Origin: Nostoc punctiforme PCC 73102
GTDB lineage: Bacteria; Cyanobacteriota; Cyanobacteriia; Cyanobacteriales; Nostocaceae
Direction: 5' to 3'
NCBI RefSeq assembly: GCF_000020025.1
Contig: NC_010628.1
Span: 5,880,001 to 5,912,000, forward strand
DNA length: 32,000 nucleotides
In this document: one piece after another, positions 10,525 to 32,000 of the stretch
How the letters are laid out: every line of letters begins with the position of its first letter
Numbering within the stretch: position 1 is the stretch's first letter
Notes under the pieces: model-generated
What the model was told of the DNA's origin: nothing
Databases searched by the model: none
What the model saw: the letters and a program-made list of their open reading frames with translations, nothing else
Translations under genes and position numbers: made by a program

Positions 10525-10528
10525 AGAA

Positions 10529-10671
10529 GAATTCAGGAGTCAGAATTCAGGAGTCAGAATGGGCTAAACCTTAGCTATCCGCTAACAGGAGTCAGTATGA
10601 ATTAGAGTCCGGTGGCGTTTTAACTCCATCTCTTCATGGATAGAGTCTTCTGAATTCTCTCTTCTGAGTCC
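10529..10671. repeat. GAATTCAGGAGTCA tandem repeat with inverted partner between convergent genes
   Basis: GAATTCAGGAGTCA occurs twice (10529-10556) plus a partial third unit. A further AGGAGTCAG lies at 10587-10595. Inverted copies TTCTGAATTC (10648-10657) and TCTGAGTCC (10663-10671) follow. The region fills the gap between the stops at 10524 (+) and 10676 (-). Confidence 0.7.
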
Positions 10672-10978: not shown

Positions 10979-11046
10979 ATTATTTAGGGGGAATGAGGAA
11001 TGGGGAATGGGAAATGGGAGTTTCTCCAATGACAAATGACCAATAA

Positions 11047-11478
11047 CTAATGACTAGTAAATACATCCCAAAACAGCATTAGGGAAATTACCAACAACAT
11101 CACACCTGCTGATTTTTCTACAGTTTTTGGGCTGAGTCGGCTAGCCATCCAACTACCTAAAAGTACACCTAATAAGCTGGTGGTTATCAGCGCCGCTGCC
11201 GATCCGAGAAATACCACCCAAGGCGAATGAGATTCTGCACTCATTAATAGGGTGGATAGCTGAGTCTTATCTCCAATTTCTGCGAGAAAAATGGTTACAA
11301 AAGTTGTGCCAAAAACTACTAACACTGATTGCTGCTTTGGAGGACTATCGGCAACTACAGGCTGAACTAGCTGGGCGATCGCAGGAGTCAAGTTAAAATC
11401 ATTGCTGTCTTTCAGTTCTAGCTCGATCTCAGTCTGAGCTATGCCAGAAATCTCCAAAGGTGCAGAGTCAAGTTTCAC
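11047..11478 (-). CDS. UPF0016 (GDT1/TMEM165/PAM71/Mnx) family half-size cation transporter subunit with N-terminal extension
   Basis: 143 aa with a GTG start. Signature AEIGDKTQ after the first helix, three predicted helices in total, and about 50 non-hydrophobic residues at the N-terminus. Its stop lies 68 nt upstream of the paralogous half-gene start. Confidence 0.8.
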   Translation of the reverse strand: MKLDSAPLEISGIAQTEIELELKDSNDFNLTPAIAQLVQPVVADSPPKQQSVLVVFGTTFVTIFLAEIGDKTQLSTLLMSAESHSPWVVFLGSAAALITTSLLGVLLGSWMASRLSPKTVEKSAGVMLLVISLMLFWDVFTSH

Positions 11479-11965: not shown

Positions 11966-12017
11966 GGGAGTGGGGAATGGGGAATGGGGAATGGGGAACT
12001 TGTACTGAGCGCAGTCG
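11966..12017. repeat. GGGGAAT heptamer array fused to the core ACTTGTACTGAGCGCAGTCG
   Basis: gggagtGGGGAATGGGGAATGGGGAATGGGGAA (11966-11998) runs directly into ACTTGTACTGAGCGCAGTCG (11998-12017). The same core, with one C/A difference, follows a different heptamer array inside recJ at 13842-13861. Confidence 0.85.
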
Positions 12018-12095
12018 TAAAGCCTGCGGCATAGCTACGCTTAGGGCGCAGCCTCTCGTAGAGAAGTATGGGGAATGGGTAGCAGGAAAGGATTA

Positions 12096-12170
12096 GGGGA
12101 CGAGGGGGACAAGGGGAAATTATTGAATAAGCCTCTTCCTTGTCTCCCCCCTCTTCCTTGTCTCTTCTCC
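12096..12170. repeat. Imperfect inverted repeat of GGGGACAAGG-type purine/pyrimidine blocks
   Basis: ggggacgagggggacaaggggaaat (12096-12120) faces cctcttccttgtctcccccctcttccttgtctcttctcc (12132-12170) across an 11-nt spacer. It lies in the divergent ykgJ / psb30 intergenic region. Confidence 0.55.
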
Positions 12171-12347
12171 ATGCCCAATGCCCCTCTGCCTCTTCTGCTC
12201 AATCCCCCTATTTTACGTTTTTATGTCTTTTCTTATAATTTTGTTAAGTAAATTAAATCCAACAGGCCATAGACAGATATGATCGATTGCGGGTTTTGTA
12301 ATTAAGTTATTGAATTTTTTAAGACAATTGGAAGGAGAAAGGGGAAA

Positions 12348-12497: not shown

Positions 12498-12608
12498 TGA
12501 GTGCTGATTAAGAGTTAGGGGTGAGGAGCGATGCCCTGAGCCTGCCAAAGGGTTAGGAGTGAGTAATTAAATTTTATTCTCAACTCATAACTCATAAATC
12601 AGCACTCA
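12498..12608. repeat. Long inverted repeat between convergent psb30 and recJ (possible shared terminator)
   Basis: TGAGTGCTGATT (12498-12509) is the exact reverse complement of AATCAGCACTCA (12597-12608). The interior holds GAGTTAGG / ACTCATAACTCATA heptamer-type repeats. Confidence 0.6.
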
Positions 12609-12647
12609 CAATGTTACAGTCACAAGTGATAAGTTAATTGATAACTC

Positions 12648-14795
12648 TTAACTTTTAACTGATAACGCTTGAAGTGCAGCTTGAATAATACTGTCATACT
12701 GTGGCTGAGAAATATCAACTTCTTTAGCGTTTTGACGATTAGTACCAAGTAAACCGATTATATGTCCTGGCTGCATGACTAACACCTTGCCTTCAGGGTT
12801 TTTAATTCTTAATTCTGCTTCAATGCCGTTTTTATAGAAACCACAAGTATAGTTTCGCTGATTGTACTCAAAGTTGGTACTTGACGAAATAGGTGGCGAA
12901 GCAAAAAATTTTTGAATCTGAATTGGCAATCTAACACCGATTAACTCTAGCTCGATGGTGGTGTTGCCGTTAAAATAATTTTCTCGCAGTTTGTAAGCTA
13001 CATCCACTCGCGGCGGTAAGCGGAAGTAGTCGCCCCAACGCCAAGCGATCGCTTTAATTCTGTAATCCTGATTATCAATAGTTTGGGCAATTGTCAGTTT
13101 GATGTGACCCTTACCAACGATTTTTTGCTCAACCACTTGAACATTAGCTGTCCAAAAAACTGGATCGGGGTTGTCCATACCGCAAGGATGTAGAGCATTA
13201 AGCTGTTGGTAAAGCTGCTGATTGATCTGATCGAGGTTGACTTCGGCATCAATTTTGAGCAGAGGCTTGAGATGCTGGGGTTCAAGACACTGGTTAGCAA
13301 ACTCAATCAAACGCGATCGCACCATCTGTAAATTTTCTGCTGGTAGAGAAAATCCCCCTGCGGCTTTGTGTCCGCCATATTTTCCTAGTAAATCGTGACA
13401 ATATTCCAAAGCTTCAAACACATTAAACTCTGGAATTGAGCGTGCAGAACCGCGTATATGTTCCCCATCCTCATAAGTACCGATAAATACAGGAACACCG
13501 TAGCGTTCTACCAAGCGGGAGGCGACAATCCCAATAACGCCGTGATGCCAATTGGGTTGAACAACAATTAATACACGATCTTGTTGTAGAGATGTAACAA
13601 ATTCTGATTCTACATAAGCGATCGCTTCTTGTTCAATTTGCTGACACATTTCCTGGCGAGAAGCGTTGATTTGTTCGCACTGCATTGCTCTTTCCAGCGC
13701 CACCCCCATATCATCTGTAGTCAGCAATTCAATCACAGTCTGGGGATTACCAATTCGACCGATAGCATTAATTCGTGGTCCCAAGCGAAACCCGATATCT
13801 TCAGGCTTGAGCGATTTTGGATTTTGGATTTTGGATTTTGGACTTGTACTGAGCGAAGTCGAAGTATTGGCAATTTCCTCCCCTGCTCCCCTGCTCCCCT
13901 GCTCCCCTGCTCCCCCTGCTCTCTCCTCTCCCCTCGCTTGCACGCCACCTACCTGAATCAACGCCTGTATCCCAGCTAAGTTGGATTTGGGTAAATGCTG
14001 TAAACCACGTTTCACCCAACGGCGATTTACGCCAGTTAAGGGAGCTAAATCTGCGATCGTTCCTAGTGTAAACAGTGCTAGCATCGGCTGGATCAATCCC
14101 TTCGTCTCGCCTAGCTGTTGTGCTAAAGACACTGCCAAAATATAGGCAACACCAACACCAGCAACACCCCTATAGGGTGAGGATTCTGCTATTAGCTTAG
14201 GGTTGAGGATAGCATTAGCTGGCGGTAATTTTTGGGGGATATCGTGGTGGTCGGTGATAATAACTGCAAGACCAAGTTCTCTAGCTCTAGCAACTGGTTC
14301 AAACGCAGAGATGCCATTATCTACAGTCAGAATTAATCCCACACCTTCGCTGTGAAATTCTTCAACTATGCGTTTATTGATACCGTAGCCTTCGTGCATC
14401 CGGCTGGGGATAGCATAATCTACCTGTGCGCCTAAAGTGCGGAGACTACGTAAAAGTAGAGCCGTGCTGGTCATTCCATCAGCATCGTAGTCACCACAAA
14501 TAGCAATTTTTGTTTGAGAAGCGATCGCATTTTGCAACAACTCCAAACTAATCGCCAAATCTGGGAAATCTTCTAATGGCGAAGGTAAGACTAATGACTC
14601 TGGCTCTAAAAATGCTTGTGCTTGTTCTGGTGTTTCCATACCCCGATTAATCAACAACTGGCTGATAATGGGCGAAACATTGATCAAAACCGCCAGTTTT
14701 TGGGCAAATTCTGGTTTTTGTGGATAAATTTGCCAGCGCTGATTAGGTAAGCGCCTGGTAGGTTTTGAGAATTCAGATACAGGTCGGTCTAGCAC
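12648..14795 (-). CDS. recJ: Single-stranded-DNA-specific exonuclease RecJ
   Basis: 715 aa with a GTG start. Contains the DHH-family motifs (IAICGDYDADGMTS, LILTVDNG, ITDHHD), GFRLGPRINAIGRIG, the DHHA1 motif GGHKAAGGFSL, and a C-terminal OB-like extension. Confidence 0.92.
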   Translation of the reverse strand: MLDRPVSEFSKPTRRLPNQRWQIYPQKPEFAQKLAVLINVSPIISQLLINRGMETPEQAQAFLEPESLVLPSPLEDFPDLAISLELLQNAIASQTKIAICGDYDADGMTSTALLLRSLRTLGAQVDYAIPSRMHEGYGINKRIVEEFHSEGVGLILTVDNGISAFEPVARARELGLAVIITDHHDIPQKLPPANAILNPKLIAESSPYRGVAGVGVAYILAVSLAQQLGETKGLIQPMLALFTLGTIADLAPLTGVNRRWVKRGLQHLPKSNLAGIQALIQVGGVQARGEERAGGAGEQGSRGAGEEIANTSTSLSTSPKSKIQNPKSLKPEDIGFRLGPRINAIGRIGNPQTVIELLTTDDMGVALERAMQCEQINASRQEMCQQIEQEAIAYVESEFVTSLQQDRVLIVVQPNWHHGVIGIVASRLVERYGVPVFIGTYEDGEHIRGSARSIPEFNVFEALEYCHDLLGKYGGHKAAGGFSLPAENLQMVRSRLIEFANQCLEPQHLKPLLKIDAEVNLDQINQQLYQQLNALHPCGMDNPDPVFWTANVQVVEQKIVGKGHIKLTIAQTIDNQDYRIKAIAWRWGDYFRLPPRVDVAYKLRENYFNGNTTIELELIGVRLPIQIQKFFASPPISSSTNFEYNQRNYTCGFYKNGIEAELRIKNPEGKVLVMQPGHIIGLLGTNRQNAKEVDISQPQYDSIIQAALQALSVKS
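13813..13919. repeat. Composite micro-repeat cassette in frame within recJ (heptamer array, core, octamer array)
   Basis: 4 x GATTTTG/TTTTGGA (13813-13842), then the core CTTGTACTGAGCGAAGTCGAAGTA (13843-13866), then 4 x TCCCCTGC and one TCCCCCTGC (13879-13919). Translated on the minus strand this gives ...AGGAGEQGSRGAGEEIANTSTSLSTSPKSKIQNPKS... Confidence 0.9.
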
Positions 14796-22859: not shown

Positions 22860-24752
22860 GTGATTTCACAGCCAACCACTTTTAAAACAACCTCTAAGCT
22901 AGGGAATGTTGAAACCCAAGAAAATTATTATATGAATGCTGAAGAATTTTTAAACCAAGGATTGAACCATAGTTTGCAAGGCGATTATCAAGAAGCGAAC
23001 GCAGCTTATACCCAGGCAATCAAGCTCAACCCTAACTTTGCTGAAGCTTACCATAATCGAGGAATTATTCTTACCGATCAACTCAAAGATTATCGTGGTG
23101 CGATCGCAGATTTTAATCGGGCTATAGAAATCAATCCTAATTTTGCCACAGCCTATTATCACCGGGGTAATGCACATTACTTTTTAGGCGATTATCAAGG
23201 AGCGATCGCAGATTATAATCAAGCATTAGAAATCGATCCCAATCTCGCCCAATTTTACCACAGCCGGGGTAATGCCTACTTTGCCTTAGAAAAATACGAC
23301 AAAGCGATCGCTGACTATATCCAAACAATAGAAACTAGTACCCAGTTAGCTGATAATATCAATATTGATATTGCTAATGCTTATCATAATCGGGGTGTAG
23401 TTTGTTTTGAAAAGGGCGATCGTCAAGGAGCAATCGCAGATTTTCAACAAGCTTTACAGTGGTATCCCAATTTTGCCGCAGCTTACAGCAATCGGGGTAA
23501 TATTCACCATATCTTAGGAAATTTCAAGGAAGCGATCGCCGATCATGACCGAGCATTACAATTAGATCCGAAGTTGGCGGAGGCTTATCATAATCGAGGT
23601 AATGCCCACTACTCTTTAGAAAATTATCAAAGTGCGATCGCAGATTACAACCGCGCTCTAGAAATCAATCCCAGGTTTGCTGGAGCATATTACAACCGGG
23701 GTTTGGTTCTAGCTCATCTCAAAGAATATCACCGAGCAATTGAGGATTTTAATCAAGCGCTAAAGTTCAATCCTGATGATGTGCAAGCTTATTGTGAACG
23801 AGGTCTTGTCCGTAGTACCCTTGAAGACTATGAGGGTGCGATCGCCGATTATGATCGAGCGTTACAAGAAAATCCGACTCTAGCTTTAGTATATGGCTTT
23901 CGGGCCAATGCTCTCCGCCGACTGGGAGACTATCAAGGCGCAATTGAAGATAGCAATCGGTTATTACAACTCAATCCTAGTTTAGCTGAAGGATATTGCG
24001 ATCGCGCTGCGGCTCGTCGTTCTTTAGGAGATCATAAAGGAGCAATTAAAGACTACGATCGGGCATTACAGATTAACGATCAATTAGCCGCAGCTTATTA
24101 TGGTCGTGGAATTGCCCGTGAAGCTCTGAAAGATTTACAGGGAGCAATTGATGATAATACCCAAGCGATAGAGTTGGTTCCTGAATTTTCGCAAGCGTAT
24201 TGTAATCGAGGAAATACTCGTCGTCTTTTGGGGGATGAACAAGGAGCGATCGCAGATTATAATCAAGCATTAAAAATTAATCCCGATTTAATTGAAGCAT
24301 ATTACAATCGCGGTTCAACGCATTACGCTTTAGAAGCTTATGAAAGTGCGATCGCAGATTACACGCAAGCTTTACAAATAAATCCTCAATCTGCTGCATT
24401 TTACAGCGATCGCGCTAATGCCCGCTATGCTCTAGAAGATTATCAAGGAGCAATAGAAGATTACAGTCGGGCGATCGCGATCGACTCCAGCTTTGCCGAA
24501 GACTGGTACAATCGGGGTCGTAGTCGTTCTCTATTGGGAGATTTACAGGGAGCGCTCACAGACTTAAACCAAGCCTTACAACTTCAGCCTCATTGGGCTT
24601 CAGCTTACATCCTGCGAGCAGATGTCTACCAAAATCTGGGTGATTCTCAAGGAGCAATTGCGGATTTCCAAAAATCCGCAGATTTGTATTACCAAGAGGG
24701 AAATGTTCAGTATTATCAACAAATTATGGAGCTAATTCAACAGCTTCAATAA
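22860..24752 (+). CDS. Tetratricopeptide repeat (TPR) protein, about 17-18 tandem 34-residue repeats
   Basis: 630 aa from GTG 22860; ATG 22932 (MNAEEFLNQG...) is an alternative start. It is nearly all TPR consensus: AEAYHNRGNAHYSLENYQSAIADYNRALEINPRFA and variants, with a 102-nt period. Confidence 0.9.
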   Translation: MISQPTTFKTTSKLGNVETQENYYMNAEEFLNQGLNHSLQGDYQEANAAYTQAIKLNPNFAEAYHNRGIILTDQLKDYRGAIADFNRAIEINPNFATAYYHRGNAHYFLGDYQGAIADYNQALEIDPNLAQFYHSRGNAYFALEKYDKAIADYIQTIETSTQLADNINIDIANAYHNRGVVCFEKGDRQGAIADFQQALQWYPNFAAAYSNRGNIHHILGNFKEAIADHDRALQLDPKLAEAYHNRGNAHYSLENYQSAIADYNRALEINPRFAGAYYNRGLVLAHLKEYHRAIEDFNQALKFNPDDVQAYCERGLVRSTLEDYEGAIADYDRALQENPTLALVYGFRANALRRLGDYQGAIEDSNRLLQLNPSLAEGYCDRAAARRSLGDHKGAIKDYDRALQINDQLAAAYYGRGIAREALKDLQGAIDDNTQAIELVPEFSQAYCNRGNTRRLLGDEQGAIADYNQALKINPDLIEAYYNRGSTHYALEAYESAIADYTQALQINPQSAAFYSDRANARYALEDYQGAIEDYSRAIAIDSSFAEDWYNRGRSRSLLGDLQGALTDLNQALQLQPHWASAYILRADVYQNLGDSQGAIADFQKSADLYYQEGNVQYYQQIMELIQQLQ

Positions 24753-24824: not shown

Positions 24825-26027
24825 TTATTCAAAACGGAAGCGTTTCATGAAGCGGCGGTCAATGCAATCTTTGTAATGCCACAAGAGTTTATGAGGTGGT
24901 AAAGTAAAGATGCCTTTGGTTGCGATCGCTTTTCCATCTCCTGTACCAATTAGACTTAAATATTGTTGCTGCGGCTTATAGGGTTTGAGCGATTTCCCTA
25001 ATATAATTCGCTGCAAATTATTAAATAAAGGTTTACCTTGTCTAACAGCAAATACCCCAGCTTTTGGACGCGGATAATTTAACATTGTGGCGATGTCACC
25101 AGATGCAAATACCTGCGGGTGCGTTTGAGATTGTAACGTGTCTTCTACCAGAATAAAACCTTGCTCATCAGTTCCTAATCCCGCAATTTTTAACCATTCG
25201 GGTGCTGAAGCTTGTGTTACCCAAAAAATTTTATTACACTCTACTCTCAAACCAGAGTTGCACTTAATTTCAAATGTTTCTCTAGTTTCCTTGGAGTTTT
25301 TAGGTGCGATATTACACACATTTTCTCCAAGATATAGCTTAATACCCCGCTCGGTGAGAATCTGCTGAAGTTGATGCCGTACTGATTGATGATAATTGGG
25401 CATCAGTTGTATGTTACGCTGAAATAAATGAATTTCCAGATTTTGAATTGGTTGTTGATTTTGATGTAAAATCTGATGTAAATGAGATTGCATCGCCAAC
25501 GCCAATTCTACACCGCCAGCACCTCCACCTGCGATCGCAATCCGAATTGCTTCTTGAGGATTTTTACCTACAGCTGCAATTAGTTCATACCAATGTTCCA
25601 ATAGCTGGGATACTGGTTTAGCTGCGATCGTATATTCTGCTGCTCCTGATACAGACACTCTGGCCGGAGTGCTGCCAATATCAATAGACAGCACATCAAA
25701 ATCTACCGCCAATCCGTTAGCACAGAGAACTTTGTTGTTTTCCAAGTCTAGGGCAACTACTCTGTCAATATACAAATTTGCTTGAGCAAAGTTAGCCAAT
25801 GGTTTCAAATCAATATGACATTCATCATGGGTGTAAAATCCAGCAATATGTCCTGGTAACATTCCAGAGTAGGCTGTCTTTTGATTTGCAGTAATCAACG
25901 TCAAACGCACTCCGGGTAACGGCTTCATTCCAAACATTTTCAGGGCAATTGCATGGCTGTGACCGCCACCAATCAGCACTAAGTCTTTAAACATAGTATG
26001 TTGACAGTAATCATTAATTATTTTCAT
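24825..26027 (-). CDS. FAD-dependent pyridine nucleotide-disulfide oxidoreductase family protein (NDH-2-like)
   Basis: 400 aa. N-terminal dinucleotide fold DLVLIGGGHSHAIAL, a second Rossmann motif IRIAIAGGGAGGVELALAM, and the C-terminal FASGDIA motif. ATG 25994 (MFKDLVLIGGG...) is a plausible alternative start. From memory, similar domains occur fused to SelD in some cyanobacteria. No SelD part is present here. Confidence 0.75.
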   Translation of the reverse strand: MKIINDYCQHTMFKDLVLIGGGHSHAIALKMFGMKPLPGVRLTLITANQKTAYSGMLPGHIAGFYTHDECHIDLKPLANFAQANLYIDRVVALDLENNKVLCANGLAVDFDVLSIDIGSTPARVSVSGAAEYTIAAKPVSQLLEHWYELIAAVGKNPQEAIRIAIAGGGAGGVELALAMQSHLHQILHQNQQPIQNLEIHLFQRNIQLMPNYHQSVRHQLQQILTERGIKLYLGENVCNIAPKNSKETRETFEIKCNSGLRVECNKIFWVTQASAPEWLKIAGLGTDEQGFILVEDTLQSQTHPQVFASGDIATMLNYPRPKAGVFAVRQGKPLFNNLQRIILGKSLKPYKPQQQYLSLIGTGDGKAIATKGIFTLPPHKLLWHYKDCIDRRFMKRFRFE

Positions 26028-26741
26028 ACTGTAAAAAAAAATTCATCAATTAATAACAGTCAATTAGTAAAAATATGTCTGGGGATACAGGCTTTCCAAA
26101 AACAAGTTAACCAAACTCAGGATAAGTCCCCAAAAGAGCATTTAAGAAGAGCAATTGAACAACTAGAAAGTAATACAATAGAAAACAGTCTAGCTGTAAT
26201 TAATGATTTAGAGCTAATTGCCAAAAATCATCCACAGTACCACTGGATAATTATGAACATTCTTACTATTTTTATCCGAAACAATACTCTTTATATACCT
26301 CAAGAAGAAGTAACGATTAATCTGCTAGAAAAAGTTCGTCTAAATATTCAAGCAGCCCTTAGCGTTATCGCTAAAAGAGATATAAATAAAGACCCAGAAA
26401 ATGAGCAGCTTGATTTAAGTTATATCGATATGAGAGGAGCAAACCTGAATAAGGCGAATCTACAACAGACAAATCTTTATCAAGCTAATCTTGCTGGGGC
26501 GAACCTTACAGAAGCTAATCTTGCAGGAGCAATTCTCAGTGCAGCTAACCTCGAAGGTGCGAACTTATATTTAGCTAACCTCGAAGGGGCAATTCTTAGT
26601 GCAGCAAACCTAAAAGGAGCTAACTTAAAAGGGGCTAACCTGCATTGTGCAAGCTTATATCTAGCTGATTTACATGGGGCAATTCTCAATGATGCCATAC
26701 TTGATGGGGCTAACCTTAGAGAAGCTAAATTCTCTGAGTAA
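25998..26741 (+). CDS. Pentapeptide-repeat protein, short paralog lacking the membrane anchor
   Basis: 247 aa. The C-terminal half is A(D/N)LxG pentapeptide repeats (ANLNKANLQQTNLYQANLAGANLTEANLAGAIL...). The preceding module HPQYHWIIMNILTIFIRNN...IQAALSVIAKRDINKDPENEQLDLSYIDMRGANL is homologous to the next gene. The first ~40 codons are AT-rich and overlap the divergent gene start, so the start call is uncertain. Confidence 0.75.
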   Translation: MLTVIINYFHTVKKNSSINNSQLVKICLGIQAFQKQVNQTQDKSPKEHLRRAIEQLESNTIENSLAVINDLELIAKNHPQYHWIIMNILTIFIRNNTLYIPQEEVTINLLEKVRLNIQAALSVIAKRDINKDPENEQLDLSYIDMRGANLNKANLQQTNLYQANLAGANLTEANLAGAILSAANLEGANLYLANLEGAILSAANLKGANLKGANLHCASLYLADLHGAILNDAILDGANLREAKFSE

Positions 26742-26966
26742 AACACCAGTCCTGCAAGGCGAAAGTTAAAATTAAAAAGCTTATAGGGTAGGATTTTCAC
26801 CAATTTTCAGTAATTGTTCAATTTTCGCCTTAATCTACTACTATATTCGATATTATTACCTAGTTAAAGAGGTCTTCTGACACCTATTATAATTTTCTGC
26901 TAAATGCTATACTATTTTTTCCAAACATCTAAGTAATAATTCTAAGTTGTAAGGAAAATCTTTACC

Positions 26967-28442
26967 ATGTCTTCTAAAAAGACAGACACTCTGTTGAATT
27001 GGTTGATAACTATAACAGTTATATTTGGCTGCTCATTGATTGTAATTTTCTTTGCTTTATCCAGTATTAAAGAATTGTCAATTCAGGAAAAAATTCAGTA
27101 CAGAAACCAAGCTTTAACAACTGCTGCAATAGTTTTTCTGGCATCGGCGGCAATGTTTAATACCTATTACGCAGCAAAGCGGGTCCAAGCGATGCAGAAA
27201 AATGCGATCGCAGCTGAGAAAAACCTCGAAATTGGCCTTCAAAATGCCAAACTCAATCAAGATAGATTGATTTCAGAACGCTTTATGGGGGCAATTTCCC
27301 AGCTTGGTCATGATAAAGTTGAAACCCGAACAGGTGCAATTTATGCCTTAGAAAGAGTTGCTCAGGATTTTCCTAAAGAACACTGGACAATCATGGAAAT
27401 CCTTACTGCCTTTGTGCGAGAAAATGCAGCTATCCAGCAGGTGAAGGTTGAGCAACAAAAGCCGGAATATGCACCAGATGCTTATTCAGGTAGGCGTAGA
27501 GGTGGGTCGCGTCCGACACAGCAGTTAGAGCAAAATCTCCATGAAGAATTTCCAACAATCCGCACTGATATTCAAGCAGCCCTAACTGTTATCGGCAGGC
27601 GTAATTTACTCGAAGACCCAAAAGATCAGAAACTTGATTTACGTCATATCGACATCAGACGAGCAGACCTGCTAGGAGTTAACCTACAACAAGCAGATTT
27701 ACGTGGTTCTGACTTGAGCGGGGCTGACTTGCGTGGAGCCGACTTGAGTGAGGCTGACTTAAACGGCGCTAAACTCATTAGGTCTATTCTCTATGAAACC
27801 AAATTACTACAAGCCAGCCTCTGTGGAGCTAATCTATGTTGGGCTAATCTTAATCGTGCTAATCTCTCAGGGGCTAACCTGCGTTCAGCCAACCTTTCTG
27901 GAGCAAGTCTGCGTATAGCGAATCTCCAAGGAGCAAACCTCTATAAAGCCAACTTGCAACAAGCAACTTTGAAAGTCGCCAATCTCTCTGGCGCAAAGCT
28001 GTTTTTAGCCAACTTGCAAGGTGCAAAACTGGGTAAAGCCAACCTAAATCTAACGGGTTTGATAGGTGCTAATCTTTCAGGGGCTAACCTGAATGGAGCC
28101 AACCTTTCTGGGGCTAACTTGAATGCAGCCAAACTCCACCAAACAGAAGTCTATTTTGCCAATCTCTCAGAAGCCAGTTTAACGGAAGCTGACCTGCATC
28201 AGGCAAACCTGATTGGAGCCAACCTGCATAGAGCGACCTTTTATCAAGCTAACCTGACTCAGGCAAACCTGATGGGAGCTAACTTCTTAGAAGCTGACCT
28301 CAGTGATGTCAAACTGGAAGGGACAATTTTAACAGGGGCTAAAAACTTAGAGTTGCATCAGATTAGAAAGGCACTTGGCGATCGCACCACTCGCCTACCT
28401 GATTATATAGAAGCACCAACAGATTGGCGGCAATCAGGTTGA
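26967..28442 (+). CDS. Membrane-anchored pentapeptide-repeat protein
   Basis: 491 aa. Two N-terminal hydrophobic helices (LLNWLITITVIFGCSLIVIFFAL, ALTTAAIVFLASAAMF) and a helical module ERFMGAISQLGHDKVETRTGAIYALERVAQDFPKEHWTIMEILTAFVREN. About 250 residues of pentapeptide repeats follow. Confidence 0.9.
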   Translation: MSSKKTDTLLNWLITITVIFGCSLIVIFFALSSIKELSIQEKIQYRNQALTTAAIVFLASAAMFNTYYAAKRVQAMQKNAIAAEKNLEIGLQNAKLNQDRLISERFMGAISQLGHDKVETRTGAIYALERVAQDFPKEHWTIMEILTAFVRENAAIQQVKVEQQKPEYAPDAYSGRRRGGSRPTQQLEQNLHEEFPTIRTDIQAALTVIGRRNLLEDPKDQKLDLRHIDIRRADLLGVNLQQADLRGSDLSGADLRGADLSEADLNGAKLIRSILYETKLLQASLCGANLCWANLNRANLSGANLRSANLSGASLRIANLQGANLYKANLQQATLKVANLSGAKLFLANLQGAKLGKANLNLTGLIGANLSGANLNGANLSGANLNAAKLHQTEVYFANLSEASLTEADLHQANLIGANLHRATFYQANLTQANLMGANFLEADLSDVKLEGTILTGAKNLELHQIRKALGDRTTRLPDYIEAPTDWRQSG

Positions 28443-28912: not shown

Positions 28913-29018
28913 CAATACTTCTCGCTTTGTGCATTTTTAACTCGGAATCAGGTTTGGGGTAAAGGTTTTTTCTGTCCCTTTCCCCTTTTCCCTTTTCCCC
29001 AAAATCCGAGAAGTATTG
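28913..29018. repeat. Nested inverted repeats flanking a purine-rich tract between the hybrid kinase and the CheY-like gene
   Basis: The outer repeat is a perfect 12-bp pair, CAATACTTCTCG (28913-28924) / CGAGAAGTATTG (29007-29018). The inner pair is TTTGGGG (28953-28959) / CCCCAAA (28997-29003). The interior on the minus strand reads GGGGAAAAGGGAAAAGGGGAAAGGGACAG. Confidence 0.7.
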
Positions 29019-29048: not shown

Positions 29049-32000
29049 TCAATCGTTGTTCAAATTCCTGGGGGTAATACGCCCTTTAGTCAAAAATTCT
29101 GCATCTTGACTTGCGTGGCTATTTATGATTTGGTCATGACGACTATAAATTACAGGAATATTGGAAGAGTTTTGTAAATCAGTATGTGGGAAAGTCCCAA
29201 ACAACGGCAGAGTGACGTAAAAAGTACTACCTTCGCCCAATATACTCTCAGCCCAGATGCGTCCGCCGTGCTGTTGCATAATGCTTTTACAAATTGCCAA
29301 ACCTAAACCAGTACCATCATGGTTACGTGAATCTGAAGAGTCAACTTGTTGAAAGCGTTCAAATATACTCTCAAGTTTGTCAGTTGGGATACCGCGTCCG
29401 GTGTCTTTGATGGTTAACAAAACTTCATCGCCTTCTTGTTGTGCCCCCAACCAAACCGTAGATCCAGCAGACGAAAATTTAATGGCGTTACTCAGTAGGT
29501 TAGTTAAGGTTTGGACAATGCGATCGCAATCTGCCAATACTTGACCGGATAGAGCAGAAATGGATAGTGTCACTCCGGCTTTGTCAGCCAAAGGCTGGAT
29601 GACATTTACTGCTTGAGTAATCAAATCAACGATATTGCAGATTTCTGCTTCCATCTTCGCCTTACCCGACTCAATCCGCTCAATGTCTAGAATGTCGTTG
29701 ATTAAACGTACTAGGCGTTCGGTGCTATCAGCAGCAATTTGCAACAGACGTTTTCCCTGCTCTGAGTCTGTCGGCAGCAAACCACTGGCTAGCATTCCGA
29801 GAGAGCCGTAAATCGAAGTTAAAGGTGTGCGGAGTTCATGACTAACAACAGAGACAAACTCGTCCTTCATCCGTTCGATTTGCTTGCGCTCTGTGACATC
29901 TCGTAAGATGACCGTATAAAATATCTCATCACCCATATCTATTTTAGAGATAGAAGCTTCTGCTGGAAACTCACTTCCATCCTTTCGGCGACCATAAATT
30001 TCACGCCGTTCTCCCATGCGCCGGGCAACATTGGGAGATTGCCCAAAGTCCGCTACGTGTTGACGATGTGCTTGGAAAAAGCGCTGCGGTAAGAGTAAAT
30101 CAAGACCTTGGCCAATCACTTCCTGGGCACAGTAACCAAAAATCTTCTCTGCTCCTTGATTAAACAAGGTGATATTGTGGAACCCGTTGATAGAAATAAT
30201 TGCATCATCAGCAATATCTAAAATTCGGGCAAATCGGGCTTGAGAAAACCGTAATTCTTCCTGCGTTTGCTGACGTTCATCAAGTTGTGACTGCAACTGC
30301 TGATTCACACTTATTAACTCGGCAGTTCGCTCTGCTACCCTCAACTCTAGTTCATTGATAGCTCGGTGAGAGAAAGATGGGGGTGAATTTACTTCCTCCG
30401 CTCCCCCTGCCCCTCTGCTCCCCTGCTCCCCTGCCCCTCTGCTCCCCTGCGTCACACGCTGCCGTAATTTCATTCGTTCTAAGCGATTGACGATCCGAGT
30501 TACAAGTTCTGGCCCGACAATGGGCTTGCTTACAAAGTCATCAGCACCAATGCTAAATACCTGATTTACCATCTCGGCATCGCTATGAACAGTGAGGAAT
30601 AAGATGGGTAACTCACTCCAGTGTGAATCGTTGCGTACTAATCGACAAAGTTCTATCCCATTGATATAAGGCAATTCCACATCTAAAATCAGCATATCTG
30701 GGGCAACTGCTTCTAAAGTTTCCCAGAACTGAAGCGGATTTTCAAGAGCGATCGCTCTGAGTCCCCAAGGACTAAGTAAGGTTTGCAACAATGCCTGAAT
30801 TTGCGGATCGTCATCCACAACCAATATTTTAGTTTCTGCATCGGGATGATTTTGCAGTGGTTGCGTCACTGTTTCTACTTGGGAGATTGACGATCCAGAT
30901 ATTGCCCCTGCATCGTTTCCCTCTATTTCTCGACGCAATAAATTTACCCAAATTTGGAGGTTGCCAATCTCAGATTTACTCAAGGTTTGATCATAACTCA
31001 GCAGCAGTTCGATATTGCGGGCCCATTTTGAGCCAAGAGGCAAGCCAAAAGTGCCTAAAGACCCTGCCAAAGTATGGGCTTCTTTGGCTGCAAGGGAGAG
31101 TAATTCGGGATTTAAACTATTATTTTGATTTAAAGTTGCGATCGCTTGCTCTAGCACCCTCACCTGCTGCTCCACCCGCCCTTGAAATCGTTGCCAAATT
31201 TCTGCAACTGCCATTAGTGCTTGCTGCTGTGATTTGAGATTGGGTATCGGCGATTTTACCCTATCTACTTCCCCTCTGCTCCCCTGCTCCTCTGCCCCTC
31301 TGCTCCCCTGCTCCCCGGCTCCTGCGCCCCTGTGCTTATCCTCTTCCAGAGGTTTCAGACGATAGCCAATACCATAAACTGTTTCAACCAAATCACCGGG
31401 CGCTCCTACAGCTTTAAGTTTTTGTCGTAACCCTTTGATATGAGTGCGAACAGCTTCTTCTTGGGGAGTATCTTCATAAGACCAAAGATGCTCTAAAATC
31501 ATGCCACAGCTAAACACCCGACGACTATTTCGCAAGAATAGTTCTAACAGAGCAAACTCTTTTGGGGTAAGTGGGAGCAGGTTTCTAGCATAAACCGCTT
31601 CACAGCTACTAGGATCTAGGCGCAACTTCCCAGACTCCAGCACCGGTGGCGAGGTTACGGCTGGGCGACGCAACAGCGCCCTTATACGAGCAACTAACTC
31701 TTCTATATCAAAGGGTTTAACTAAATAATCGTCTGCACCTGCATCTAAGCCGATTGCTTTCTCATGACTACTATTGCGCCCTGTCATCAACAAGATCGGC
31801 ATTTGCAGATTATTAGACCGGATTTTACGACAAAGACTAATGCCATCCAGCTTGGGCAAAACTACATCCAGGAGAATTAAATCATAATCGTAAGCTTGAA
31901 TACAATCCCAGGCAGCATCGCCATCAGTGGCAACTTCAACCGCATAGTTTTGGTTAGTCAAAAGGTTAGTCAGTGTATATGCATTTAACCCATCATCTTC
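29049..32000 (-). CDS. Multidomain two-component protein: REC - OmpR-type winged helix - Hpt - REC - PAS - HisKA - HATPase (5' end beyond the window)
   Basis: The ORF track starts it at TTG 31961, but the frame stays open to position 32000 (EDDGLNAYTLTNL upstream), and a receiver domain needs about 10 more N-terminal residues. The motifs are listed in the finding covering 29049-32000. Confidence 0.9.
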   Translation of the reverse strand, partial: EDDGLNAYTLTNLLTNQNYAVEVATDGDAAWDCIQAYDYDLILLDVVLPKLDGISLCRKIRSNNLQMPILLMTGRNSSHEKAIGLDAGADDYLVKPFDIEELVARIRALLRRPAVTSPPVLESGKLRLDPSSCEAVYARNLLPLTPKEFALLELFLRNSRRVFSCGMILEHLWSYEDTPQEEAVRTHIKGLRQKLKAVGAPGDLVETVYGIGYRLKPLEEDKHRGAGAGEQGSRGAEEQGSRGEVDRVKSPIPNLKSQQQALMAVAEIWQRFQGRVEQQVRVLEQAIATLNQNNSLNPELLSLAAKEAHTLAGSLGTFGLPLGSKWARNIELLLSYDQTLSKSEIGNLQIWVNLLRREIEGNDAGAISGSSISQVETVTQPLQNHPDAETKILVVDDDPQIQALLQTLLSPWGLRAIALENPLQFWETLEAVAPDMLILDVELPYINGIELCRLVRNDSHWSELPILFLTVHSDAEMVNQVFSIGADDFVSKPIVGPELVTRIVNRLERMKLRQRVTQGSRGAGEQGSRGAGGAEEVNSPPSFSHRAINELELRVAERTAELISVNQQLQSQLDERQQTQEELRFSQARFARILDIADDAIISINGFHNITLFNQGAEKIFGYCAQEVIGQGLDLLLPQRFFQAHRQHVADFGQSPNVARRMGERREIYGRRKDGSEFPAEASISKIDMGDEIFYTVILRDVTERKQIERMKDEFVSVVSHELRTPLTSIYGSLGMLASGLLPTDSEQGKRLLQIAADSTERLVRLINDILDIERIESGKAKMEAEICNIVDLITQAVNVIQPLADKAGVTLSISALSGQVLADCDRIVQTLTNLLSNAIKFSSAGSTVWLGAQQEGDEVLLTIKDTGRGIPTDKLESIFERFQQVDSSDSRNHDGTGLGLAICKSIMQQHGGRIWAESILGEGSTFYVTLPLFGTFPHTDLQNSSNIPVIYSRHDQIINSHASQDAEFLTKGRITPRNLNND
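30401..30450. repeat. Octamer array (TCCCCTGC / CCCTCTGC units) in frame at the REC2-PAS junction
   Basis: ctccccctgc ccctctgc tcccctgc tcccctgc ccctctgc tcccctgc, translated on the minus strand as QGSRGAGEQGSRGAGGAEE. Confidence 0.9.
31270..31335. repeat. Octamer array (TCCCCTGC family, degenerate) in frame at the wHTH-Hpt junction
   Basis: tcccctctgc tcccctgc tcctctgc ccctctgc tcccctgc tccccggc tcctgcgc ccctgtgc, translated on the minus strand as HRGAGAGEQGSRGAEEQGSRGE. Confidence 0.9.

Follow-up and report, generated by a model that had tools for sequence, protein, structure and literature searches.

A hypervariable low-complexity loop in the RecJ exonuclease of Nostoc looks like tolerated small repetitive DNA rather than a switch

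What might a stretch of micro-repeats, with units whose lengths are not multiples of three, be doing in frame within the gene for a DNA-repair enzyme? The question is raised by recJ, the gene for the single-stranded-DNA-specific exonuclease RecJ, in a 32,000-nucleotide stretch of the genome of the cyanobacterium Nostoc punctiforme PCC 73102 (assembly GCF_000020025.1, contig NC_010628.1, positions 5,880,001 to 5,912,000 of the forward strand), hereinafter the window, in whose coordinates all its features are given. A segment of this gene strings together a heptamer array, a 24-nt element that we term the core, and a G-rich array of octamers and nonamers (Table 1). A first-pass annotation, made from the sequence alone, had offered two readings of it, namely the tolerated insertion of a tiny mobile repeat into a loop or a contingency-type switch on RecJ. 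Our analysis sides with the former: the segment has the appearance of selfish DNA that is tolerated and evolves fast, and not that of a switch, and it is highly probable that three kinds of small repetitive DNA, each independent of the others, have piled up in a disordered surface loop of RecJ. An odd low-complexity stretch in a repair enzyme would thereby find its explanation in tolerated repeat DNA and not in a regulatory device.

The recJ gene initiates with a GTG codon, and its product displays the Pfam domains DHH (residues 96-246), DHHA1 (407-501) and RecJ_OB (515-618). Tandem Repeats Finder (TRF) and exact string searches recovered the three repeat parts where the first-pass annotation had placed them, along with the 45-residue peptide and the two flanking motifs that it had read within the recJ open reading frame (ORF). 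On two counts its description needs trimming. The heptamer array, for which TRF reports a period of 7, 4.3 copies, 100% matches and a score of 60, does hold the four TTTTGGA units assigned to 13813-13842, but the exact units occupy 13815-13842 and 13813-13814 is merely a partial unit. Similarly, the arrays and the core do make most of this DNA repetitive, but the 12 nt at 13867-13878 belong to no repeat; this spacer, GGAAATTGCCAA, has GAGAAAATTTCTAA as its aligned counterpart in core-less alleles. The octamer array reads on the plus strand of 13879-13919 as four copies of TCCCCTGC and the 9-mer TCCCCCTGC, and is reported by TRF as a period-8 array at 13878-13934 (score 80), with the tail up to 13934 being degenerate. 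The core runs antisense to recJ and is translated in its frame as TSTSLSTS. It has one match in the window where none is expected (100 dinucleotide-preserving shuffles), the double octamer (16 nt, at most 2 mismatches) has 12 where 0.02 are expected, and the double heptamer has 4 as against 0.83 in dinucleotide-preserving shuffles.

As had been noted from the sequence, neither array contains a stop codon in any of the six frames; the core is open in five of its six, with a TGA in frame +2. Two antisense ORFs on the plus strand (13629-13979 and 13666-13956, of 116 and 96 aa) cross the segment; these are by-products of the stop-free repeats and not genes. The mRNA strand of recJ harbors a G-quadruplex motif at 13880-13916, composed of five runs of four to five G separated by 4-nt loops. 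The full segment is less structured than its shuffles (z of +2.5 and +3.0), and an Rfam scan of the whole window at the gathering threshold returned no match.

With respect to the RecJ fold, the segment is an insertion relative to the solved structures, and the HMMER alignments break at it: residues 285-288 of the query align with residue 260 of Thermus thermophilus RecJ (2zxo) and residue 331 with residue 261, while in 8y30 the site is flanked by residues 264 and 267. Across the 147 alignable representatives of RecJ clusters built at 50% identity, the site is six residues long in 95, four to eight in 136, and 30-56 in only four. An AlphaFold2 model built on 52 sequences assigns residues 286-326 predicted local distance difference test scores (pLDDT) below 50, with means of 24-26 over 10-residue blocks, and no secondary structure; the helices beside the loop (273-281 and 330-347) score 80-96. 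The model thus points to a disordered and permissive loop, and the two checks that the first-pass annotation had suggested, namely alignment of orthologues and mapping onto a structure or model, both speak for the tolerated loop insertion that it had entertained. The residues of the catalytic DHH-family motif are invariant in the RecJ alignment. The segment ends 16 residues ahead of the invariant R346, which aligns with R280 of Deinococcus radiodurans RecJ, a residue that we take to be a contact of the 5'-phosphate.

Among 120 RecJ orthologues from Nostoc, with identities of 90-98%, the segment occurs in 95 distinct forms and 22 lengths ranging from 23 to 49 aa, as against only 12 and 16 variants of the flanking 48 and 51 aa, which show a mean pairwise identity of 97%. 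The loop varies while the core of the enzyme is conserved, and we infer that it is functionally neutral with regard to RecJ activity. We examined the DNA of 18 recJ alleles, 11 of them from this Nostoc set. One (L122) possesses just four heptamers in a segment of 69 nt and another (L128) heptamers followed by four octamers in 102 nt, both being devoid of the core, while PCC 73102 and a second strain, C110, combine heptamers, core and octamers/nonamer in 135 nt. The TCCAAAA heptamer is present in about one or about four units; CCCCAGT heptamers replace it in L126, and L127 has an AACTCCT-type repeat. The copy number of the octamers and nonamers shifts in steps of 9 and 24 nt. In PCC 73102, C110, L121, L123, L124 and L125 the core is in reverse orientation and borders the array, with ...CCAA on one side and the first TCCAAAA on the other, whereas the identical 24 nt stand in forward orientation amidst the heptamers of L020, where they are read as TCTERSRS, and both copies, forward and reverse, are found in L046. 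Three close relatives from the cluster of at least 90% identity (P0513, P0517 and P0521) lack it altogether. The core is in turn the host of nested inserts of 21-24 nt at three positions (in L124/P0511, L125/L046 and P0512/P0514, respectively), and a sibling 24-mer, CGTTCGACTGAGCGGAGCCGAAGT, is lodged inside the heptamers of L123. Each of the three parts (heptamers, octamers and core) is gained and lost among the recJ alleles without regard to the other two.

The same site is occupied by other material in more distant Nostocales, of which a metagenome scan furnished seven RecJ loci with 66-76% identity. Here, one locus (L131) has 70 aa encoded by GGGCAAT/GGGCAAG and ATTCCCA heptamers, a second (L135) 16-nt repeats, and a third (L129) another small hairpin-like duplicate, while L133 and L134 have 13-17 non-repetitive residues. 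The type of allele does not track a neighbor-joining tree of the RecJ backbone, a tree that is itself poorly resolved. Many RecJ entries labeled 'partial' end within the segment (P0271, P0275-P0277, P0283, P0285, P0288 and P0304); short-read assemblies break at the repeats. On the practical side, the segment offers a high-resolution marker of Nostoc strains (95 alleles in 120 strains), and also spawns spurious antisense ORFs and breaks short-read assemblies.

The octamers recur in the window in two interdomain linkers of a hybrid histidine kinase (Table 1), which is 100% identical to the N. punctiforme protein. Among its orthologues the REC-PAS linker ranges from 29 to 62 aa and the Trans_reg_C-Hpt linker from 20 to 78 aa, and these linkers contain AGEQGSRG modules as well as SDR-like (small dispersed repeat) inserts such as those encoding ALRLRSVT, STSATLSDRG and TSLREAAPT, the last of which belongs to the very family that is nested in recJ alleles. 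The linkers vary in the same way as the recJ segment, and the phenomenon is general. One of the kinase arrays (30403-30447, minus strand) has a G-quadruplex motif too. About 1 Mb of loci that we examined contained 23 octamer arrays, of which 20 fall within open frames of at least 200 codons; these 20 genic arrays, which represent about seven independent sites, have their G-rich strand as the sense strand without exception.

The core, for its part, was sought in one genome per species, amounting to 596 Gb, where at least 120 stretches with exact copies were found; the matches listed comprise 127 copies with 116 distinct flank pairs, and to these the following counts refer. About two thirds of the stretches come from Nostoc, Calothrix, Nodularia, Anabaena and other Nostocales. 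The boundaries of the core are precise: A precedes it in 103 of the 116 flank pairs, and it is followed by T in 76 pairs and by A in 30. Copies are embedded in heptamer arrays of diverse units (TCCAAAA, CATTGGG, TTGGTCA, ATTACGA and CATTTGT), and the core nests in itself or in its siblings exactly at GAGCGA/AGYCGAAG (a slash marks the insertion point), with L080 being triple-nested. Open frames of at least 200 codons contain 41 of the 127 copies, with all five stop-free frames being used, and these frames include ORFs of up to 2,666 codons that resemble nonribosomal peptide synthetase (NRPS) megasynthases (e.g. ...PGDK/RLVAYVV). In four Nostoc loci of this NRPS-like type (L012, L034, L062 and L099) an in-frame core stands repeatedly beside a KRLVAY-type motif, presumably an adenylation-domain motif, and in L034 and L062 there are two such insertions in one gene each; this suggests a recurrent target or spread between paralogous modules. 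The TCCAAAA array likewise occurs in at least 10 Nostoc loci besides recJ.

A further instance of the core family is provided by an intergenic nest downstream of recJ. Its core-like element (11999-12069) is degenerate, contains nested inserts of its own, and is followed by C-rich repeats; the GGGGAAT array that it interrupts has a G-quadruplex motif at 11972-11996. In C110, which shows 93-96% DNA identity to the window across the syntenic region, the heptamer array leads into a short unrelated sequence without any core-family element, about 16 nt standing in place of 11999-12195. Presence/absence polymorphism with precise boundaries is thus seen both among the recJ alleles and at this empty site, and the core is a mobile element in cyanobacteria. 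A strong hairpin was considered as its defining feature and discarded, as the core and its sibling fold no better than shuffles. Palindromes or hairpin loops were also rejected as a general rule for its targets: five flank pairs form a stem of at least 5 bp as against about 0.9 expected, and these are mainly from non-cyanobacterial copies. An assembly or adapter artefact is ruled out by the fact that complete genomes show the same architecture, as do assemblies which, to judge from their contig names, were made with different assemblers, and by the orthologous filled and empty sites and the nested variants.

How might such a loop have come about? We propose that insertion and slippage operate at the level of the DNA, and that selection on RecJ would then weed out those variants that shift the frame or bring in a stop codon. 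The TCCAAAA array would probably have grown by slippage from a single native copy, the TCCAAAATC within NPKSLK (encoded by ...AAT CCA AAA TCG CTC AAG); the GCAGGGGA/GCAGGGGGA array would expand and contract, slippage being the likely cause of the variation that is seen; and the core inserts precisely at junctions between A and T, with the preference for short tandem repeats and for the center of its relatives that is apparent in its distribution. Such a filter should not be hard to pass, given arrays without stops in any frame, a core of 24 nt with five open frames out of six, and peptides of a hydrophilic and flexible nature. One would expect the outcome to be a low-complexity loop that evolves fast, in the manner of a ratchet, while the enzyme keeps working, and wherein RecJ would need none of the three kinds of repeats and none of them would need RecJ.

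Certain observations weigh against this proposal. No Nostoc allele has reverted to the ancestral loop of 6-8 aa, the minimum being 23 aa; some length could be useful or, equally well, precise deletions could be wanting. The bias of the G-rich strand toward the sense orientation is not predicted by pure neutrality and could stem from selection on the peptide, from tolerance of the peptide, or from a mechanism linked to transcription or the G-quadruplex. The hairpin of the core, at -0.9 kcal/mol, is no better than in shuffles. Moreover, a single recJ allele was found to be out of frame (L143; GCA_032153685.1, JASEJY010000229.1, 3356-3492), in which a 44-nt tandem duplication gives rise to a segment of 137 nt with a premature stop and splits recJ into two called genes; this could be a sporadic mishap that inactivates the gene, or else an assembly error, and not the reversible slippage of a unit.

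That allele is also one of the few footholds of the contingency switch, according to which slippage of the 7- and 8-nt units would toggle RecJ and yield subpopulations with altered recombination or mutation behavior. The idea further draws on the presence within the ORF of arrays whose unit lengths are not multiples of three, with the first-pass annotation having correctly reckoned that a change by one unit would shift the frame, and on the variation in array length between strains. RecJ-type exonucleases are known to affect the stability of tandem repeats, so that a feedback is conceivable. However, the segment is in frame in all 120 full-length orthologues, and its length is a multiple of three in 18 of 18 DNA alleles. 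It had been supposed that the frame is kept only by a lucky sum of unit lengths; rather, every surviving allele is in frame because out-of-frame variants would have been removed. Strains do differ in the length of the segment, the observed differences being steps of 9, 21 and 24 nt. Between PCC 73102 and C110 the recJ genes diverge by 3.7% of their nucleotides without any gap, the segment included. Searches with the N-terminal 285 residues show that truncated RecJ proteins in the databases are almost all due to contig ends within the repeats or close to them (the contig of L144 ends inside the segment) or to frameshifts elsewhere in the gene. Neither frequent ON/OFF variants among strains (120 proteins and 18 DNA alleles) nor a long tract close to the 5' end or promoter are seen, there being just 4-5 units in codons 286-330 of 715, and the sole OFF allele arose from a 44-nt duplication and not from a one-unit change. 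We therefore hold the switch to be very improbable.

The first-pass annotation had also treated the three parts as one cassette, and a composite mobile element that moved into recJ as a unit would explain their adjacency, as well as the recurrence of a heptamer array paired with the core at L005, L006, L028, L048, L061, L112, L116 and L120. This pairing follows from the preference of the core for short tandem repeats as targets. Against the cassette, there are recJ alleles with each subset of the parts, the core is found at two sites and in two orientations, and the same three-part arrangement is found at no locus outside recJ among the matches listed (at least 120); such a unit is hence scarcely credible. 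A different challenge is posed by the possibility that the loop is adaptive and that selection maintains its diversity, be it through a phage-encoded inhibitor of RecJ, the tuning of a partner, or the control of translation by an mRNA G-quadruplex. In favor of this may be cited the extreme allelic diversity beside flanks that are 97% identical, the floor of 23 aa in Nostoc, the strict sense-strand orientation of the octamers, the G-quadruplex motif on the mRNA strand, the formation of quadruplexes in vitro by G-rich Nostoc repeats (PMC4692102), and the proximity of the segment to the invariant R346. Nevertheless, the variation consists of DNA repeat families found genome-wide and not of amino-acid substitutions, the same families fill unrelated linkers and intergenic DNA, the loop is predicted to be disordered, and the type of allele is not mirrored in the RecJ backbone tree. 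An adaptive loop is conceivable but improbable, and the accumulation of tolerated repeats remains our preferred account of the recJ segment.

Apart from these loci, the window contains repeats of other kinds. A gene for a TPR-like protein (22860-24752) has fourteen 102-nt repeats, many of which have the HIP1 palindrome GCGATCGC at one and the same repeat position, and two pentapeptide-repeat genes (25998-28442) have ordinary period-15 DNA repeats that dominate the output of the repeat finder. Short heptamer arrays are found at gene ends (10528-10560, 10988-11056, 12582-12660 and 28975-28999), with the units AGAATTC, GGGGAAT, AATGACT, AACTCAT, TAACTCT and TCCCTTT; such arrays are typical of Nostoc intergenic DNA rich in short tandemly repeated repetitive (STRR) sequences.

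Table 1. Features of recJ and related repeats, in window coordinates, and loci with the core outside cyanobacteria
Feature	Coordinates	Strand	Remarks
recJ, single-stranded-DNA-specific exonuclease, 715 aa	12648..14795	-	identical to ACC83106.1 / WP_012411064.1
Hypervariable in-frame segment, 135 nt = 45 codons, residues 286-330	13806..13940	-	flanks ALIQVGGV / PEDIGFRLGPR invariant
Heptamer array, 4.3 x TCCAAAA (sense), STRR-type, encodes SPKSKIQNPKS	13813..13842	-	TRF
24-nt core CTTGTACTGAGCGAAGTCGAAGTA, dispersed mobile element, SDR-type	13843..13866	+	A/T junction, edge of heptamer array
Non-repetitive spacer GGAAATTGCCAA (sense), encodes EIAN	13867..13878	-	native loop sequence
G-rich octamer/nonamer array: GCAGGGGGA, 4 x GCAGGGGA, degenerate tail; encodes GGAGEQGSRGAGE	13879..13934	-	
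Intergenic nest, GGGGAAT heptamer array interrupted by core-like element (CTTGTACTGAGCG...GAAGTA)	11966..12075	+	
Octamer array, REC-PAS linker of hybrid histidine kinase (ORF 29049-31961), encodes QGSRGAGEQGSRGAGG	30404..30450	-	
Octamer array, Trans_reg_C-Hpt linker of hybrid histidine kinase, encodes GAGAGEQGSRGAEEQGSRGE	31273..31336	-	
Non-cyanobacterial core loci			L001, L004, L009, L011, L015, L025, L027, L029, L030, L032, L036, L043, L051-L055, L063, L067-L069, L073, L076, L081, L084, L085, L089, L091, L094, L096, L098, L100, L103, L104, L107, L108, L115, L119

The distribution of the core raises a question of its own, for exact copies lie well outside the cyanobacteria, as is directly observed (Table 1). 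They are found in the complete genomes of Algoriphagus halophytocola and Lacinutrix neustonica, in isolates of Cecembia, Crocinitomix, Psychroflexus and Thalassobellus, and in metagenome-assembled genomes of Saprospiraceae, Bacteroidales, Chloroflexi, Ignavibacteria, Desulfuromonadales, Gammaproteobacteria, Chitinispirillaceae (Fibrobacterota) and Daviesbacteria of the candidate phyla radiation (CPR). By chance, about 0.004 occurrences of a 24-mer would be expected in 596 Gb. These copies often lie in tandem repeats or in palindrome centers, several of them in the middle of a palindrome or hairpin, and Cecembia has paralogous repeat units with one or two tandem copies of the core. Seven related GC-rich viral contigs of IMG/VR (L136-L142) also contain the exact core (e.g. 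L136, 7057-7080), which there constitutes the entire spacer from a TAA stop codon to the next ATG; it is 100% conserved between two groups of contigs whose upstream flanks, compared by eye, differ at many positions.

According to a passage in PMC5861425, no SDR was detected by Elhai et al. beyond the Nostocaceae. The restriction as worded in that passage fails for the core and is contradicted by its exact copies, which extend to at least six further phyla and to phage contigs. It is quite possible, and we advance this tentatively, that the core is a sequence-invariant, ultra-small mobile element of at least seven bacterial phyla and phages, the lineages meant being Cyanobacteria, Bacteroidota, Chloroflexi, Ignavibacteria, those of Desulfuromonadales and Gammaproteobacteria, Fibrobacterota and CPR. 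Across these hosts it may insert at junctions between A and T in tandem repeats, in the centers of hairpins or palindromes, and in its own middle, often in frame. If true, this would imply that these 24 bases are recognized by an insertion machinery common to many lineages, or else by a process of the host, and would render the mechanism of insertion a tractable problem of comparative genomics.

Among known systems, the closest in behavior to the core are the small dispersed repeats SDR1-8, which Elhai et al. reportedly defined in N. punctiforme in 2008 (in Genome Res) and which are said to be nested and mobile families of 21-27 nt. The core resembles them in its length of 24 nt, its many dispersed copies in Nostocaceae, its precise insertion, its presence/absence polymorphism, its nesting and its association with heptamers, a likeness that pertains to these behavioral criteria and not to a published consensus sequence. 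A search of full-text literature for the core sequence string did not find it. It departs from the SDRs in extending beyond Nostocaceae, the limit that PMC5861425 gives for them in the passage concerned; and, unlike SDR5, which in the relevant part of PMC4390886 is stated to insert precisely into HIP1, it is found in HIP1 in none of its 127 listed copies.

The heptamers recall the STRR sequences of heterocystous cyanobacteria, reportedly described by Mazel et al. in 1990. These share with the recJ array the tandem arrangement, the dispersal and the variable copy number. The units of STRR1, STRR2 and STRR3 we take to be CCCCAGT, TTGGTCA and CAACAGT, so that L126, with CCCCAGT, would have the first of these in recJ. 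The window unit TCCAAAA is not among the three classical units, and its array is intragenic and in frame; the second array of recJ differs from STRR sequences by its units of 8/9 nt. A parallel for those octamers comes from the GGGGA(C/T)T heptamers of Nostoc and Xanthomonas, shown by Rehm et al. in 2015 to form G-quadruplexes (PMC4692102): both are G-rich, are arrayed in about four units, abound in Nostoc and fit the G-quadruplex motif. The same study finds those heptamers to be mostly intergenic and under-represented on the coding strand, whereas the octamers have a unit of 8/9 nt and are genic in 20 of 23 cases, all 20 on the coding strand.

With the contingency loci of Haemophilus and Neisseria, the recJ segment shares intragenic tandem repeats of units that are not multiples of three. 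Unlike them, it resides in a housekeeping repair gene, shows no ON/OFF polymorphism, has short arrays in mid-gene, and keeps its array length between strains diverged by 3.7%. Functionally, the nearest parallel for in-frame selfish DNA is found in the Rickettsia palindromic elements (RPE), which were reportedly described by Ogata et al. in 2000 and are inserted in frame in protein-coding genes of Rickettsia (reviewed in PMC10969869). Like these, the core is a dispersed element that appears in frame in unrelated genes, its peptide lying at positions compatible with the fold. RPEs are palindromes of about 100-150 bp that are restricted to Rickettsia, whereas the core has 24 nt, a weak hairpin and cyanobacterial hosts, occurs amid tandem repeats, and extends to a much broader range of hosts. 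The recJ segment thus adds to the known repeat classes a new example with unusually good documentation, and is a well-resolved natural case of how repeat arrays and a mobile element of 24 nt reshape the loops and linkers of proteins when a filter passes what is in frame and free of stops.

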